Source: an archaeon (GTDB lineage: Archaea > Aenigmatarchaeota > Aenigmatarchaeia > Aenigmatarchaeales > JACQIB01). Taken from it: a stretch of 64,000 bases of DNA. Position 1 is the first letter of the stretch. Every line of letters begins with the position of its first letter. Below, in pieces: positions 42,035-48,724 of the stretch. Below the pieces are notes generated by a model. The model did not search any database. It worked only from the letters and a program-made list of their open reading frames with translations, and was not told the origin of the DNA. A program made the position numbers and the translations under genes. Where the stretch lies: positions 11,163 through 75,162 of the forward strand of contig DATDSO010000010.1 of NCBI GenBank assembly GCA_035291225.1. Reading direction: 5' to 3'.

Positions 42035-42168
42035 AAAATATCACCTCTAATTTTATAGGCTAAGTAGAAGGTATATGTTTATAAAGGTTTTGAAATAGCC
42101 GGCAGAAAATCTTTATATACCACCTCCCACATTATTCTTCAGAAAGATTTTTTAATTTTTAGATCATT

Positions 42169-42399
42169 ATGACAACAAACTCATCGCGCCCTCTTGACGT
42201 ATTGGACCGAGCAAAAGGAAAACGCGTAATCCTGAAAACAAAAAATGGCTCAGAGATTACTGGCGTTTTGCAGGCATTTGACCTGCACTTGAATATTTGG
42301 CTGGAGGAAGCAGAAGAAAGAAAGGACGATAAAGTAGTGAAGCTCGGACCGACTCTTGTAAGAGGCGACACGATAATTTATGCAAGCCCGGCTGCGTGA
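42169..42399 (+). CDS. Sm-like (LSm/SmAP) RNA-binding protein
   Basis: ..RPLDVLDRAKGKRVILKTKNGSEITGVLQAFDLHLNIWLEEAEE...LVRGDTIIY: Sm1/Sm2 motifs. Conserved archaeal neighbour of rpl37e. Confidence 0.85.
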   Translation: MTTNSSRPLDVLDRAKGKRVILKTKNGSEITGVLQAFDLHLNIWLEEAEERKDDKVVKLGPTLVRGDTIIYASPAA

Positions 42400-42468
42400 A
42401 AAAATTTCTTTAGGAAAATTTTGAAAAGCTAGCTTGAGCTTGCATGATTATGTGAGAATATTTATTGA

Positions 42469-42517
42469 CACACAATGATGCGAGCGTGCGCGAGTTTACT
42501 CTGTACGCGAGCCCATC
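42469..42517 (+). repeat. GC-rich hairpin repeat, copy e2
   Basis: CACACAATGATGCGAGCGTGCGCGAGTTTACTCTGTACGCGAGCCCATC. Lies 10 nt upstream of TATA 42527-42534. Confidence 0.75.
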
Positions 42518-42562
42518 CAGAAAATCTTTATAAACTTTCTCTTCTCAAACCAATTGATTAAA

Positions 42563-42751
42563 ATGGTTTCAAAAGGAACATCAAGTTTCGGCAAGCACAA
42601 CAAAATCACGCACATACGCTGCCGAAGGTGTGGACATCACTCTTATCACATAAACAAAAAAACCTGCGCCTACTGCGGATTTCCCGCGCCGAGATTGAGA
42701 AAGTTCGGATGGCAGTGGAAAAGGGTTTTGACGAGAGAGAGAAAGAGATAA
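42563..42751 (+). CDS. rpl37e: 50S ribosomal protein L37e
   Basis: MVSKGTSSFGKHNKITHIRCRRCGHHSYHINKKTCAYCGFPAPRLRKFGWQWK: L37e zinc ribbon. Confidence 0.85.
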   Translation: MVSKGTSSFGKHNKITHIRCRRCGHHSYHINKKTCAYCGFPAPRLRKFGWQWKRVLTRERKR

Positions 42752-42802
42752 TTTTTCTCTCAAAAACAGATTTATATTTCCTTCTGTTCAACAGATTTCT
42801 GC

Positions 42803-42976
42803 GGGCCCATAGCTCAGTCTGGTAGAGCACTCGGCTCTTTGTTCCAAAGAGCAACACGAGCCTTTTTAGCTGTCGGCAAAATCTGAAAGATTTTGCGAGC
42901 TCCCAAAAAAGCTGAAAGCTTTTTGGCGATGAGTAAAACCGAGGGGTCGCGGGTTCGAATCCCGTTGGGCCCACCA
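42803..42976 (+). tRNA. tRNA-Lys(CUU) with about 97-nt anticodon-loop intron; CCA encoded
   Basis: GGGCCCA-TA-GCTC-AGTCTGGTA-GAGC-A-CTCGG-CT-CTT..[about 42840-42936]..AA-CCGAG-GGGTC-GCGGG-TTCGAAT-CCCGT-TGGGCCC-A-CCA. TATA 42771-42778. The exact intron junction is ambiguous. Confidence 0.8.
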
Positions 42977-42993
42977 CAGATGCATCAGACAAC

Positions 42994-43236
42994 GTCGAGG
43001 TGGCTCAGCCTGGTAGAGCACCAGACTCATAAATTTTTTATGAGAATTGATAGCAAAAGCAAAATCTTAAGATTTTGCTGCGCATCGAAATCGCAGATTT
43101 TGATTGCTAACGCTAAATGAAAAAATGAACTCTGGGGGTCGCGGGTTCGAACCCAAGCCTTTTTATCAAAAAAGGCTAGGGCTTATCCAAAAAGGAAAAT
43201 AGCTTCGGATATATGAAACGCCCGCCCTCGACACCA
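42994..43236 (+). tRNA. tRNA-Met (elongator) or Ile2, anticodon CAU, two introns (about 98 nt anticodon loop, about 68 nt T-loop); CCA encoded
   Basis: GTCGAGG-TG-GCTC-AGCCTGGTA-GAGC-A-CCAGA-CTCATA[43032-43129]C-TCTGG-GGGTC-GCGGG-TTCGAAC[43153-43220]CCCGC-CCTCGAC-A-CCA. The anticodon stem lacks the initiator GGG/CCC. Confidence 0.75.
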
Positions 43237-43277
43237 AATTTATAAGAATACTGTTAGATTTAATTTGAGATGATTTC

Positions 43278-44384
43278 ATGGCCATATCAGAACTAATAGG
43301 TATAGATGTTCCGCCGCTTCTAAGAAAATATTTTAACGCTCTTTCTGAAATTGAAAAGAAACATATAAAAGACAGAATAAGTTCTATAAGGTCCAAGTAC
43401 AATTCAATAAAATCTTTGCGGACTCCGAAATATTTTAAGACTCAGGTGGATCCTATGTTTTTCTGTTTTGAGGATCTTCCGTTTTTTGGAAAAGAATACT
43501 GGTTTATGAAATTTACCCCTACCGCACCGAAAGATAACAGGCAGATATTAGCAATGTTCGGGCGCGCCACAGAAAACATGGAAATAAACAGAAAAAAAGT
43601 TATTTCAAGAAAATCCAGCAAAGGCCAGAGTGGATTCATGAGTTGCTGGTATTTCGACCAAAAAAAGAGGGATGTTGCTGATGACAAATGCGAAATTAAA
43701 ATTAATGCCGGAAGCATAGAATCTGACTCTGGGAGCGCTGAAATTATAATGAGAGGGAAATTCCCAAAATATAAAATAATTATAAAAAAGGGCGGCAAAG
43801 AAGTTTCCGATTTGGAGATTACAGAAGCGGCAAAAGATGAAAGCTCTTATGAATTTGAGTCTTTTTTCAAAGCCTTCGCGGGCTTTGCTCTGATAAATTT
43901 AAATTTTAATTTCAAAGGAAAGCTCAATGGGAAAAAAATTCTTGGAAAGTGCTATATTCAAAAAGTTATTGTTGTGGGGCCCTTGGTGCCGTGGTATTGG
44001 GGAAGAGTAACTTTTGAAAACGGCTCAGTTTTGAAGTATTATCTACCCCGGATAGAATTGCTGGGAGTTGATTACAATATTCTTTCGCAATTTGTTTTTT
44101 ATGATTCCAGAACAGGCAAGAAACAGAGCTTCAATGGCCTTAATGTGAAAAAACTTGATGGAGAGCTGCCAAGATTTATGGTGTCAGATTCTGATGGGAA
44201 TATATCCATAATCATAGATACGTATTCTTCTCACAATTTCATTTTCAAAAAAATCGGCACTTTCAATTATTCGGAATTTCTGGGAAGAGTGAAGTATATG
44301 TATATCAACGGCAGGAAAATAGATATTTCAAAACTGGGAAATGGCATAGGTTTGGTGGAAGAAGCTAGCGGCTATGTTCTGTAA
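43278..44384 (+). CDS. Hypothetical protein (368 aa)
   Basis: Long ORF with no confident family. ..GKEYWFMKF.. and ..VPWYWGRVTFENG.. faintly recall AttH/CrtC-like lipocalin folds (weak). Confidence 0.55.
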   Translation: MAISELIGIDVPPLLRKYFNALSEIEKKHIKDRISSIRSKYNSIKSLRTPKYFKTQVDPMFFCFEDLPFFGKEYWFMKFTPTAPKDNRQILAMFGRATENMEINRKKVISRKSSKGQSGFMSCWYFDQKKRDVADDKCEIKINAGSIESDSGSAEIIMRGKFPKYKIIIKKGGKEVSDLEITEAAKDESSYEFESFFKAFAGFALINLNFNFKGKLNGKKILGKCYIQKVIVVGPLVPWYWGRVTFENGSVLKYYLPRIELLGVDYNILSQFVFYDSRTGKKQSFNGLNVKKLDGELPRFMVSDSDGNISIIIDTYSSHNFIFKKIGTFNYSEFLGRVKYMYINGRKIDISKLGNGIGLVEEASGYVL

Positions 44385-45294
44385 GTGTGGATAAAAATTT
44401 CACTGTGTCAACAACAGCCTCTTTGGTGGAAATTCTTGGTTTCCATCCGAAAGATTTTAATTTTTCTATGGACAGCAGCATTAACGGAACATCTCCGGGC
44501 CAGCCCTGGCTTCCGCCAGTATATCTATATTTAACATTTTTCAATCCAAGATTTTCTGCAACAATATCTGCTATCTCCTTTGTTGTTATTTGCTCCTCGC
44601 TTCCAACATTAAAAACTTCTAGATTACCTTTAATTTTTTCTTCCAAGAAAATTGTGGCGTCGGCGCAGTCCGAAACATGCAGATAAGATTTTTTTTGCTT
44701 TCCGTCTCCAAGGATTTCGAGCTCTTTGGGATTTTTTTTCAGTTTTTTGAAAAAATCAAAAACAACTCCATGGGTGGAGTGTGGCCCGATTATGTTGGCG
44801 TATCTGACTATTATTGCCCGCAAACCATAAAGGCGAGAATAAGACGTGATGTAATTTTCGCTTGACGCTTTCGCGGCAGCATAGTTGCTTATCACAGAAA
44901 TTGGCGCTGTTTCCGATGTTGGCATTTCTGCATTTCCGTAAACAACAGAAGAAGAAGCAAAAACTATGGTTTTGACATTATTTTTTCTGCAGGCTTCCAA
45001 AACATTCAATGTTCCGACGGCATCCAGATTAAAATTTTCAACAGGATTATGAAAGCTCTCCCTGACTCTCGGATCGGCAGCAAAATGATAGCAAACCTCC
45101 ACATCTTTAAGCGTGGTTTTTATCTGCTCCGCATTAAGAATATCTCCCTTAATTATTTCGCAATTTGCCGGCAAGTACTCTCTCTTTCCCCCAGAAAAAT
45201 TATCAAAAACAGCAACTTTATTTCCCTCCGCAAGTTTTGCAACCAAGTTGCTGCCGATAAATCCCGCCCCGCCTGTTACCAAAATATTTTTCAT
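44365..45294 (-). CDS. NAD-dependent nucleotide-sugar epimerase/dehydratase
   Basis: ILVTGGAGFIGSNL Rossmann motif and ..YAAAKAS.. (YxxxK); 309 aa. Confidence 0.8.
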   Translation of the reverse strand: MKNILVTGGAGFIGSNLVAKLAEGNKVAVFDNFSGGKREYLPANCEIIKGDILNAEQIKTTLKDVEVCYHFAADPRVRESFHNPVENFNLDAVGTLNVLEACRKNNVKTIVFASSSVVYGNAEMPTSETAPISVISNYAAAKASSENYITSYSRLYGLRAIIVRYANIIGPHSTHGVVFDFFKKLKKNPKELEILGDGKQKKSYLHVSDCADATIFLEEKIKGNLEVFNVGSEEQITTKEIADIVAENLGLKNVKYRYTGGSQGWPGDVPLMLLSIEKLKSFGWKPRISTKEAVVDTVKFLSTLTEHSR

Positions 45295-45303
45295 AAATAT
45301 CTT

Positions 45304-45981
45304 TTATTTATAGTAGCCTCTATCTTCAATTTTTAATTTTATTTTCGCCGCACCTAAAATATAATACTTTATGCAGGTTCTGTAAAAACTTTGCGAAAAC
45401 CTGCGTGTGGATGCCGGCATTGAAATGCTTTTTAGAAATCTTACGCCTCCGAATTTTCTTAATCTGGAACCCATCTCGTAATCCTCCAGAAATCTTGTTC
45501 TGAATGGATTTGCCAAAAGAGTTTTTCTTTCTATAGCCATGTTTGCTCCCCAGAGGCAATTATATCCAAATTTTGCTAGAATTCTAGGAGCCAAATCCGC
45601 CCAAATTTTAAAGCCGAGTTTTTGTTTCAAACCGCCGTCTATTGCTGTAAGAGGACCAGAAACAGCAACTACTTTTCCAGAAATAGCTTTCACTATATTT
45701 TTCACCCAATCTTTTTTTGGAATGCAATCCGCATCGCAGTATGCAACTATTTTTCCTGAAGCCGCTCTTGCCCCAACATTGCGCGCATCTGAAATTCCTT
45801 GGCCATTGTCATAGACAATTTTATCAGCATATTTTTTTGCTATGCTCTCAGTTTTATCAGTAGAGTGCCCGTCGACAATTATTATCTCCGGCTTCAGATT
45901 CTGGCTTTTTAGAGCTTTCAGGCAGGCTTCTATAACTTTTTCTTCATTGCGTGTGCAGACAACAACGCTCACTTCTTTCAT
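45304..45981 (-). CDS. Family 2 glycosyltransferase
   Basis: VSVVVCTRNEEKVIEACL.., ..IIIVDGHSTDKT.., ..YCDADC.. Confidence 0.8.
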   Translation of the reverse strand: MKEVSVVVCTRNEEKVIEACLKALKSQNLKPEIIIVDGHSTDKTESIAKKYADKIVYDNGQGISDARNVGARAASGKIVAYCDADCIPKKDWVKNIVKAISGKVVAVSGPLTAIDGGLKQKLGFKIWADLAPRILAKFGYNCLWGANMAIERKTLLANPFRTRFLEDYEMGSRLRKFGGVRFLKSISMPASTRRFSQSFYRTCIKYYILGAAKIKLKIEDRGYYK

Positions 45982-46011
45982 AATTCTCCCTCAAACTAAA
46001 AATTATTTTAA

Positions 46012-46204
46012 TGGAGCCTCAGGAGAGATTTTCTGTTATATCCAAAAGCAATTTTCCTTTTTGGATAAGCCCTAGACTTTTTCGCGAAAAAGGCTTGGGT
46101 TTGAACTCCCGACTTGCGCATTCTGTGTAACTCCGTCACACAAGCCCGTGCAACAGAGTTGCCCGTTACAAGTGCGCCGCTCTACCGAGCTGAGCCACTG
46201 AGGC
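46012..46204 (-). tRNA. tRNA-Thr(UGU) with two introns (45 nt anticodon loop, 71 nt T-loop); CCA encoded
   Basis: Minus strand: GCCTCAG-TG-GCTC-AGCTCGGTA-GAGC-G-GCGCA-CTTGTA[46166-46122]A-TGCGC-AAGTC-GGGAG-TTCAAAC[46098-46028]CTCTC-CTGAGGC-T-CCA. Confidence 0.75.
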
Positions 46205-46266
46205 ATGAAAACAGTATGTAAAAGAAGGTTTTAAATTATTAACATTTCGGCCATATTTCGTGAAAA

Positions 46267-46776
46267 CTAATCTTCAAACTCAAATGATATCCATCTGAAC
46301 TGGTTTTTTGAAAACTTCGCATACGCCCAATAAAATGTTTCGTGCATAAGAAATATTATAATCGTGTAGACTGCCAGCGCATGATAGCTTGTCCAGCCAT
46401 TGCTATATGCAAAAAGCCCAATATCCACGAGCTTTGCCTCGAGAAAAACTCCGTATAAAATGCTCACAAGCATAAAAACTATGCTAAATCTTGTATGCCT
46501 GTTCGTCGGAAGCATTAGCGACCAAAAAATTCCGCCGAAAAAAGTAATGAACATTATTTCAATTGGAACATAAAAAATATAGAAGCTTCCCTGCAGGCTT
46601 TCCCAGTATCCCGTTATTTTTCCAATATTTTCTAGTATAAAATCGAAGAAACTTAAAAGTAGACCGACTGCGATAGCCGCCTTTACCTTATTTTTGTTCT
46701 TCTTCCAAGAACTTGCGGCAAAGAGAAGCGCTAAAAAAACCGCGCCAAGCTTTATCAATAACCATGCTACTGCCAT
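46267..46776 (-). CDS. Hypothetical integral membrane protein (5-6 TM)
   Basis: Hydrophobic 169-aa ORF. Confidence 0.55.
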   Translation of the reverse strand: MAVAWLLIKLGAVFLALLFAASSWKKNKNKVKAAIAVGLLLSFFDFILENIGKITGYWESLQGSFYIFYVPIEIMFITFFGGIFWSLMLPTNRHTRFSIVFMLVSILYGVFLEAKLVDIGLFAYSNGWTSYHALAVYTIIIFLMHETFYWAYAKFSKNQFRWISFEFED

Positions 46777-46835
46777 ATATTCACCTATATTTTTAGTTAA
46801 GTCTTATTTTTAAATATTACTCTGTAGAATGGAAT

Positions 46836-47705
46836 TTGGAAAAGGTGCGAAAAATGAAACTCAAAGAATATTTCTTTTCAGACACACAAAGATACTCCTG
46901 GCTAAAAAACACGCTCCAATTTCTGGTGGGGGCAACCTTCTTTATTTCCATGTCAAATTCTGCAGACATTTTGAAAATTTTAATATCATTGATTGGGGCA
47001 GTAATGGCTTATCATTCTGTTTATGGCCTCAATGATATTATAGATTTGAAAGAAGATTCTAAAAATCCTCTGAAGCGTTCGGTAAAAAAAGTTGCCAGAG
47101 GCGAAATAACAATAGAAGAGCAGGCTTCCAGAATATTCCTACATGAAGTTATAGGGCTTTCAATATGCTTTTATGTCAGCATGGTTTTCGGTCTTCTCAT
47201 AGCGGCCGCGCTGGTTTTGAATTTTTTTCATTCCTATAAACCGTTTGGAATAAAAAACACCCCGTTTGGCATGATTAATTTATTTTTGATAGAATCGATA
47301 AAATTTTCATCCCTGTGGTTTGCTCTCGGCGGAGGCTTTGGAAATTTCCCATATTTCTTAGTCATCTGCATTTCTGCGATCTATTCTGTTTCTTATTTTA
47401 TTTATAAAAAAGAGGGGGACCTGAGCTTTATCAGGAGCAGGCGTTCAATGATATTTTTTGCAGTAATAATTCTTTCCTATTTTTCATCTTTCTATTATTA
47501 TCAGCAGCTAAGAATAACCGCCCTCGCGATTTTGCCTGTATTTTTTCTGCCATTGTTGATAAAAAAATCTGCGAATGTGGAGTCCAGAATAAGAACAGGC
47601 TCTGAATTTACTTTGCTGATTTTGCTTATTTTGAACTTGGCGAATCTTTCGCCAATGATTGAGCTGTTCAAATCTATCAGCATATTTTTGGCTTCTCTTT
47701 TCTAG
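46836..47705 (+). CDS. UbiA-family prenyltransferase-like membrane protein, paralogue 1
   Basis: ..YGLNDIIDLKEDSKNP.. fits NDxxDxxxD; about 8 TM. TTG 46836 is about 25 nt from TATA; alternative ATG 46854 has an AGGTG SD. Ends ..LASLF like its neighbour. Confidence 0.6.
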   Translation: MEKVRKMKLKEYFFSDTQRYSWLKNTLQFLVGATFFISMSNSADILKILISLIGAVMAYHSVYGLNDIIDLKEDSKNPLKRSVKKVARGEITIEEQASRIFLHEVIGLSICFYVSMVFGLLIAAALVLNFFHSYKPFGIKNTPFGMINLFLIESIKFSSLWFALGGGFGNFPYFLVICISAIYSVSYFIYKKEGDLSFIRSRRSMIFFAVIILSYFSSFYYYQQLRITALAILPVFFLPLLIKKSANVESRIRTGSEFTLLILLILNLANLSPMIELFKSISIFLASLF

Positions 47706-47744
47706 AGAATTTAAATAGAAAAAACAAATTAATCAAGATAGACA

Positions 47745-48606: not shown

Positions 48607-48724
48607 TGGTGGGGTCGGAGTGATTTGAACACTCACAAGCAGTTGCCTTCATTCATCGCCGAAGCTCGTTTCTCCAAAAAGAAACATTGGAGACTGCCGT
48701 CATACCAGGTTAGACCACGACCCC
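48607..48724 (-). tRNA. tRNA-Trp(CCA) with about 41-nt anticodon-loop intron; CCA end encoded
   Basis: Minus strand: GGGGTCG-TG-GTCTAACCTGGTATGAC-G-GCAGT-CTCCAA[intron]A-ACTGC-TTGT-GAGTG-TTCAAAT-CACTC-CGACCCC-A-CCA. Confidence 0.75.

Follow-up and report, generated by a model that had tools for sequence, protein, structure and literature searches.

Putative protein-spliced introns of one structured family at the T-loop site of many tRNA genes in a DPANN archaeon

The related inserts in the T-loops of tRNA(CAU) and tRNA-Thr(UGU) in this stretch of DNA are most probably protein-spliced tRNA introns at position 59/60, members of one structured family (family A) that has spread to, or been swapped between, the tRNA genes of a DPANN genus. 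This reading is based on what was observed directly: a sequence family, the positions of its members, covariation, the geometry of the splice motif, the presence of the enzymes and the absence of an orthology signal. The window is the whole stretch of 64,000 nucleotides that was analysed, C10:11163-75162 of a host genome of 885 kb (12 contigs, 41% GC) that is found repeatedly in groundwater and soil metagenomes; the sequencing runs in which the locus was found were DNA metagenomes, with no RNA run among them. An archaeal SRP RNA is present in the window. The host genome (G000) was compared with a sister species of the same genus (G001) and with a member of a different genus (G004).

The tRNA(CAU) gene (42994..43236, plus strand) was recognised by sequence reading and stem pairing as Met-type, with Ile2 also a candidate. 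Its exons are 42994-43031, 43130-43151 and 43220-43236 with the CCA encoded, and all four stems (acceptor, D, anticodon and T) pair after both inserts are taken out. ARAGORN calls a tRNA at the locus after removal of the T-loop insert, and the exons are 96% identical to those of the sister ortholog. The first insert is an anticodon-loop intron of 98 nt (43032..43129, plus strand), for which homology to the sister ortholog gives position 37/38, with a boundary good to +/-1 nt; UCAU(33-36) can pair with AUGA at 43125-43128. No second genomic copy of this intron was found at E<0.01, and the sister ortholog carries a different intron, of 48 nt, at 37/38. The second insert is the family-A intron in the T-loop (59/60; 43152..43219, plus strand, 68 nt), which was matched with 87 bits (E = 6e-17) by R1, a covariance model built from 16 family-A copies. 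It consists of hairpin 1 (43152-43181), the core with hairpin 2 (43182-43213), the 3' guide UGAA (43214-43217) and the bulged bases A43218 and C43219, after which the exon resumes with G60 (43220).

The tRNA-Thr(UGU) gene (46012..46204, minus strand; exons 46204-46167, 46121-46100 and 46028-46012, CCA encoded) was called by ARAGORN as Thr(tgt), with an intron of 45 nt, once the T-loop insert had been taken out, and its exons are 100% identical to those of the sister ortholog. The 45-nt anticodon-loop intron (37/38; 46122..46166, minus strand) is absent from that ortholog, and the anticodon-loop introns of both the Met and the Thr gene are unique sequences outside any intron family. The family-A intron in its T-loop (59/60; 46029..46099, minus strand, 71 nt) was matched by R1 with 104 bits (E = 5e-21) and ends in AGAA-AA, followed by U60 (46028).

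Empty 59/60 sites are also present in the window. A neighbouring tRNA at 42803..42976 (plus strand; Rfam tRNA model, 54 bits), with an anticodon read as CUU (Lys), has an anticodon-arm intron of about 98 nt and an uninterrupted T-loop (TTCGAAT), which serves as an internal control for an empty site, and the 59/60 site of tRNA-Trp(CCA) (window 48607-48724, minus strand) is empty. The sister ortholog of tRNA-Trp(CCA) (L037:2921-3187) contains a family-A intron together with extra D-arm inserts, giving a clean empty/filled pair. On the raw window, ARAGORN with default settings found 0 of the four tRNA genes, and the Rfam tRNA model at its gathering threshold found only one of the four.

The first-pass annotation had placed the inserts at 43153-43220 (plus strand) and 46098-46028 (minus strand), and the strings that it quoted were recovered when the sequence was read again, coming after TTCGAA and TTCAAA and before the 3' T-stem, the acceptor strand and the encoded CCA, that is, in the T-loop as it had proposed. 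The likeness of the two inserts is above chance (90.6% over 53 nt, E = 7e-13, blastn against the 885-kb genome). They are clearly related, but their global identity of 84.5% makes the term "near-identical" generous, and the longest exact block that they share measured 25 nt rather than the 27 nt reported. The search for further genomic copies that it had proposed brought out a family of 19 members, within which the Met and Thr copies have no special relationship: the Met insert is closer to a copy in tRNA-Ser(GCU) (92%), and the Thr insert to one in tRNA-Leu(GAG) (C10:122405, 94%).

The two copies do form inverted repeats around 43221-46027, as the annotation had noted. The inversion of the 2.8-kb segment that it had suggested finds no echo in the sister genome, where window 42138-47706 is collinear and in the same orientation (G001:C23, 75-80% identity); in metagenome contigs from four runs the Met-Thr layout is likewise unchanged, with unitigs breaking at the repeat. 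A crossover between the intron copies was also considered from the layout of the genes and rejected: it would leave the 5' exons of tRNA-Met attached to the 3' exon of tRNA-Thr, and those of tRNA-Thr to the 3' exon of tRNA-Met, so that both tRNA genes would be destroyed. The genes between the two tRNAs (43278..45981) are bystanders outside the element, encoding a hypothetical protein of 368 aa (43278-44384, plus strand), an NAD-dependent epimerase/dehydratase (44365-45294, minus strand) and a family-2 (GT2) glycosyltransferase (45304-45981, minus strand). Their order and orientation are unchanged in the sister species, and a scan of 20 distant loci that encode the 368-aa protein turned up one doubtful hit and, in L060, two tRNA genes free of introns.

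By blastn, nhmmer and R1, the host genome contains 19 family-A copies of about 70 nt. Eighteen of these occupy 59/60 of different tRNAs, directly after TTCRAA, with a single base between each of them and the 3' T-stem, after which come the acceptor strand and CCA; the remaining copy is in the D-loop of tRNA-Tyr(GUA). No copy outside tRNA genes was found in the host genome by R1 at E<0.1. A motif scan tolerating inserts gave 39 CCA-encoding tRNA genes, of which 22 have some insert at 59/60, 17 have none there and only 3 are wholly uninterrupted, and the total of at least 54 introns sets a lower bound of about 1.4 per gene. In a few genes the 59/60 site is filled by sequences unrelated to family A. 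Removal of the T-loop insert gives ARAGORN tRNA calls at 15 of the 19 family loci, with pairing in all T-stems and acceptor stems, which bears out the first reading of the inserts as archaeal-type tRNA introns.

Several intron arrangements outside this main pattern were also observed. In tRNA-Tyr(GUA) (C4:169583-169735, outside the window) the cassette follows GCTCAAC in the D-loop and the T-loop is intact; an extra 11 nt (AGTAGCAGAGC) before the 3' strand of the D-stem is either a mini-intron or a mis-parse. An ortholog with the D-loop cassette was found at L054:328-480, and the 3' tail in these genes is AGGG/AGGA in place of AGAA. In tRNA-Ser(GGA), the T-loop contains a composite insert of 173 nt with a family-A 5' part and a second-family 3' part, the latter being the whole 84-nt intron that stands alone at 59/60 of tRNA-Ile(GAU) (C4:214975-214663 and C4:384252-384064); either one intron is nested within the other here or the insert is a recombinant. 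Two tRNAs share the motif CACCCCGCACCCCTATTAT, one of them in its T-loop intron and the other in an intron of the anticodon arm (C4:605722-605562, C4:504521-504741), and these introns are a second family that changes position. A T5 run lies inside hairpin 1 in 10 of 21 host T-loop introns of 50-100 nt. Oligo-T is an archaeal terminator signal, and such runs could attenuate pre-tRNA transcripts.

The family-A cassette has three parts: a 5' hairpin of 12-13 bp, a conserved core that reads UUAUCC(C)AAAAGG and is accompanied by a second, variable hairpin, and a 3' tail WGAA-A-N. Hairpin 1 starts at the 5' splice site or one base after it. Among 48 aligned copies it is 95.7% paired, with compensatory changes in 5 of 12 pairs (e.g., C-G to G-C or A-U), and its covariation score of 0.239 compares with 0.02-0.075 for partners slid by 1-3 columns. 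Pairing is less regular in hairpin 2 (78.6%), which has a modular apical part.

Junctions were tabulated for 45 T-loop inserts from the host genome and the sister species. The tails are AGAA in 34, TGAA in 7, AAAA in 2 and CGGA in 2, each followed by A-N, base 60 and the T-stem, and pairing of the tail with UUCR over at least 3 bp is available in 43 of the 45. Base 60 of the 3' exon is U, with G60 in both Met(CAU) orthologs. The result is an hBH half-motif of T-stem, 3-nt bulge and UUC:GAA helix that holds the 3' splice site, and unconstrained minimum-free-energy folding recovered the T-stem, the 3-nt bulge and UUC:GAA in 8 of 11 folded copies. In 36 of the 45 copies R57 stands opposite A, which limits the central helix to 3 bp. 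The short helix and hairpin 1 flank the 5' site (A58-A59, then i1), and the opposite strand is broken by hairpin 2. As modelled, the junction is thus a relaxed hBH/BHL-type motif on a three-way junction; the bulge-helix-bulge check proposed earlier comes out in favour of this relaxed form, whereas the strict hBHBh' (3-4-3) arrangement is not formed.

The same geometry bears on the exact position. The letters by themselves permit placement at 59/60 or 60/61. Because the tail GAA pairs with U54-U55-C56 and the 3-nt bulge is made up of the last two intron bases and base 60, the 5' exon must end at 59, and 59/60 is favoured over 60/61 on this pairing. The same placement is favoured by the folds and by base composition: U60 is found in 16 of 17 uninterrupted host T-loops, and filled genes may have any of C, G, U or A right behind A59. 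Both genes thus share one non-canonical T-loop site, as the annotation had stated, with the BHB-compatible boundary at 59/60 and not at 60/61; the introns are then 43152-43219 and 46099-46029, one base to the left of the boundary first read. In the D-loop copy, the tail AGGG matches the exon sequence CUCA. The tail has therefore changed together with the upstream exon, which fits an RNA guide, unlike a target duplication at the DNA level.

Enzymes that could act on such a motif are encoded in the host genome. Two PF01974 (EndA) ORFs lie 0.9 kb apart (C4:21011-21526 and C4:22454-23050), and RtcB is encoded at C11:31335-32651. M. jannaschii EndA (E = 2e-31) and N. equitans alpha, 3iey_A (E = 4e-29), are both matched by the 181/198-aa EndA ORF, which retains the active-site Tyr and His, while the absence of the His from the 171-aa ORF indicates a beta-like chain. 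The alpha-like ORF has an insert, VKPLKRGPKQAH, at the site of the lysine-rich N. equitans insert IPKKGKRSER, and a lysine-rich EndA insert of the N. equitans type has been linked to broad specificity (PMC3239211; PMC5829648). The C-terminal lysine-rich insert of the (alpha-beta)2 EndA of N. equitans (PDB 3IEY; 'L3' loop, PMC5829648) thus has a counterpart in the host, whose predicted enzyme differs in that Ala replaces, in both paralogs, the first Lys of the R-K-K motif seen in M. jannaschii and N. equitans. With this substitution in both paralogs, EndA activity is assumed rather than evident. The lysine-rich insert of the alpha-like chain is next to the catalytic His and might compensate for the Ala.

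Splicing itself, and the specificity of the enzyme, are predicted from these features as follows. In the pre-tRNA, the tail GAA would pair with the universal U54-U55-C56, and the last two intron bases together with U60 would bulge against the T-stem. An alpha/beta-type EndA with a Nanoarchaeum-like lysine-rich insert would be expected to cut both sites, and RtcB would be expected to ligate the exons and probably to circularise the intron. Since the guide complement is present in every tRNA, the cassette should be spliceable from any tRNA. On this reading it has spread through many of the genus's tRNA genes and has been exchanged among them.

The suggestion that the introns carry a functional RNA did not gain from the searches made. 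Rfam at E<=1 gave no credible match on the introns, the C box RUGAUGA was found in 0 of 41 scanned T-loop introns of 50-100 nt, with CUGA in 3 only, and conserved tandem GA of the K-turn type was not found in family-A introns. Unusually high conservation across species does leave some sequence constraint on the family-A introns unexplained.

Sequences resembling mobile elements were observed at several places in these genomes. A palindromic MITE-like element of about 62 nt (TGACAATGTGTGGTGTTCC...GAACACCTCACATTGTCA) is nested in three T-loop introns of the sister species (L035:8628-9006, L053:165-439, L057:221-1), in two of them exactly at the 59/60 border. On contig C5 (1.1 kb, uncertain linkage), positions 290-345 hold a free-standing hairpin, CTTTTCTTT-GGT-AAAGAAAAG, then CTAGGTCTCCCAAAAG, just past the stop of a TFS-like zinc-ribbon gene, and the contig ends in a partial IS200/IS605 Y1 transposase ORF. 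In another genome (G024, L026), a hairpin with an CCAAAAAAGGCA module related to family A follows the orthologous zinc-ribbon gene, so that intron modules exist outside tRNA genes too. The related contigs C2, C8 and C12 (1-2 kb) encode large serine-recombinase-like proteins and may be integrative elements or mis-binned DNA; on C2, an intron-less tRNA-Thr(UGU) adjoins the serine-recombinase-like gene. Contigs C3 and C9 encode IS630/Tc1-like transposases.

It is quite unlikely that family A is a small non-autonomous DNA transposon (a MITE or an IS200/IS605-type PATE) that targets TTCRAA, with splicing serving only to make its insertions harmless. The constant site and orientation, right 3' of TTCRAA (CTCAAC in the D-loop copy), the subterminal hairpins, the single partial Y1 (HUH) transposase ORF on C5 and the unrelated MITE-like elements in the three sister introns would all suit this explanation, as would conservation across species if a trans-acting enzyme had to recognise the element. 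The ends of the cassette do not look the part, however: terminal inverted repeats are absent, there is no consistent target-site duplication and none in the D-loop copy, and the two hairpins are unlike each other, with hairpin 1 starting 0-1 nt from the end. The ends of IS200/IS605 elements, as in IS608, are unlike a hairpin that starts 0-1 nt from the terminus. Moreover, family A was confined to tRNA genes at the R1 threshold given above, the sister species, which is richest in copies, gave no match to Y1 transposase or TnpB, and the tail co-varies with the upstream exon as RNA pairing would demand. TnpB was not found in the host genome either, and an exact match to the 20-nt core was absent from IMG/VR, so a viral origin of the family was also set aside.

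The comparison with relatives supports movement of introns between tRNA genes. About 30 family-A copies were found by R1 in the sister species; of the 39 other relatives searched, which belong to the same family or order, 2 gave weak matches. The matches in G004 are versions, about 50 nt long, of one subfamily at 59/60 of at least three tRNAs, including the Ala(UGC) ortholog, and its presence there, in another genus, indicates that the family is older than the genus. When 26 tRNA genes of the sister species were matched to the host by exon identity, the exons were 96-100% conserved while the introns turned over: seven to ten tRNAs have the intron in the sister species only, including Trp, Thr(CGU) and Val(GAC), and the intron subfamily often differs where both orthologs have one. 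The Thr(UGU) introns of the two species are only 68% identical and belong to different subfamilies, and within its own genome the sister copy matches those of three other tRNAs at 99%, 94% and 87% identity. For two of those three, the host orthologs (100% exon identity) have no T-loop intron (Val(GAC)) or one of a different subfamily (C4:296057).

Intron similarity hardly follows orthology. Mean intron identity was 0.744 for ortholog pairs and 0.699 for random inter-genome pairs (permutation p = 0.057), and the seven inter-genome pairs that reach 90% identity or more (up to 97%) include no orthologous pair (0/7). A third relative, from a JGI metagenome, has the same subfamily in two further tRNAs. 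Within genomes, three pairs in the host and eight in the sister species are at least 90% identical and lie in different tRNAs. The two species are only 50% identical at four-fold degenerate sites of five flanking genes, and modules have been mixed, the GCCGCUUCGCGG hairpin being joined to four different hairpin-1 types. Identity of up to 97% between non-orthologous copies, set against 50% at four-fold sites, together with the presence differences, supports recent spread of introns or gene conversion between tRNA genes, as the first reading had proposed on the basis of two copies. RVT_1 (reverse transcriptase) was not found in G000, G001 or G004, which speaks against retro-transposition; with no reverse transcriptase encoded, the route of copying would most likely be DNA-level recombination or gene conversion, as has been proposed for Thermoproteales (PMC4090602).

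These comparisons also bear on vertical inheritance, the explanation in which an ancient 59/60 intron has been present in all tRNAs without any movement and the likeness of its copies has been kept by the splicing constraint. We consider it quite unlikely. The Ala(UGC) intron is of the same subfamily (A/GCAAATCCC) in the host and in the other-genus G004, C4:18892 and L042, one ortholog pair out of seven, are each other's best match, and orthologs are slightly more alike than random pairs, all of which would be expected under vertical descent. The Thr(UGU) orthologs with their different subfamilies and the three sister tRNAs that resemble one of them, the non-orthologous pairs far more alike than the four-fold sites, the recombined modules and the same family in a D-loop argue for movement instead. 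A third explanation, that the inserts stay in the RNA and enlarge the T-loop elbow or that the genes are pseudogenes, is very unlikely. Positions 59/60 do point outward from the tRNA elbow, but the affected genes (22 of 39) include the only copies found of many isoacceptors, their exons are conserved across species while the introns turn over, the hBH geometry is present in every insert, and EndA and RtcB are encoded.

Introns that are spliced and exchanged between tRNA genes thus remain the preferred reading, with one addition. Identity of 90-97% across species that share only 50% of four-fold sites needs an extra factor, either a sequence constraint or exchange between species, and a purely passive view of the introns as spliceable junk fails to explain it. 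A tentative extension, to which we attach a rather low probability, is that family A is an actively propagating, T-loop-specific 'introner' of DPANN archaea whose sequence is held near-constant across species. Such constancy could come from dependence on a trans-acting factor, from a role of the excised (probably circular) RNA, or from movement between co-occurring species.

The phenomenon in itself is already known, both as introns with relaxed BHB motifs and as intron families common to several tRNAs; what is new here is the lineage, the cassette and the near-exclusive use of the T-loop site. In Thermoproteales, intron families common to several tRNAs have been read as the outcome of transposition (PMC4090602; Fujishima et al. 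2010 as cited in PMC4090602 and bioRxiv 10.64898/2026.10.13.758758). The two cases are alike in their lineage-specific bursts, in a host with a broad-specificity EndA (a predicted one for family A) and in many multi-intron genes. Family A differs in that it is found in a groundwater archaeon of the DPANN group, with a genome of 885 kb, and not in a crenarchaeon, in its dominance of one site (18 of 19 copies), in its long cassette of about 70 nt with a covarying hairpin and a conserved core, and in the 90-97% identity of copies from species that are close to saturation at synonymous sites.

For the motif itself, the closest precedent is the 59/60 intron of pre-tRNA-Cys(GCA) in ARMAN-2 (Ca. Micrarchaeum), which has a relaxed hBH/BHL motif and is cleaved in vitro, so that this class of motif is a proven substrate in DPANN (PMC3239211). 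The position, the half-motif (T-stem, bulge and short T-loop helix) and the DPANN host are the same in both (PMC3239211), whereas the ARMAN intron is a single case of 13 nt and its enzyme is a three-unit epsilon2 (PMC3239211), in place of the two separate alpha-like and beta-like ORFs of the family-A host. The host ORFs are closest to the M. jannaschii, N. equitans and M. kandleri chains.

In genomes of this kind, tRNA complements, and with them estimates of completeness and inferences from codon usage, will be badly underestimated, given that ARAGORN and Rfam miss most or all of the tRNAs in the window. To our knowledge, large-scale movement of protein-spliced tRNA introns is well documented only in Thermoproteales. 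The DPANN genus offers a second and cleaner case for how such introns arise and move, with one recognisable cassette, one preferred site, a reason for universal permissiveness, empty and filled orthologous sites in sister species, and mosaic copies that point to recombination. If the introner reading were true, family A would be a tractable system for the study of how endonuclease-spliced introns enter genes.
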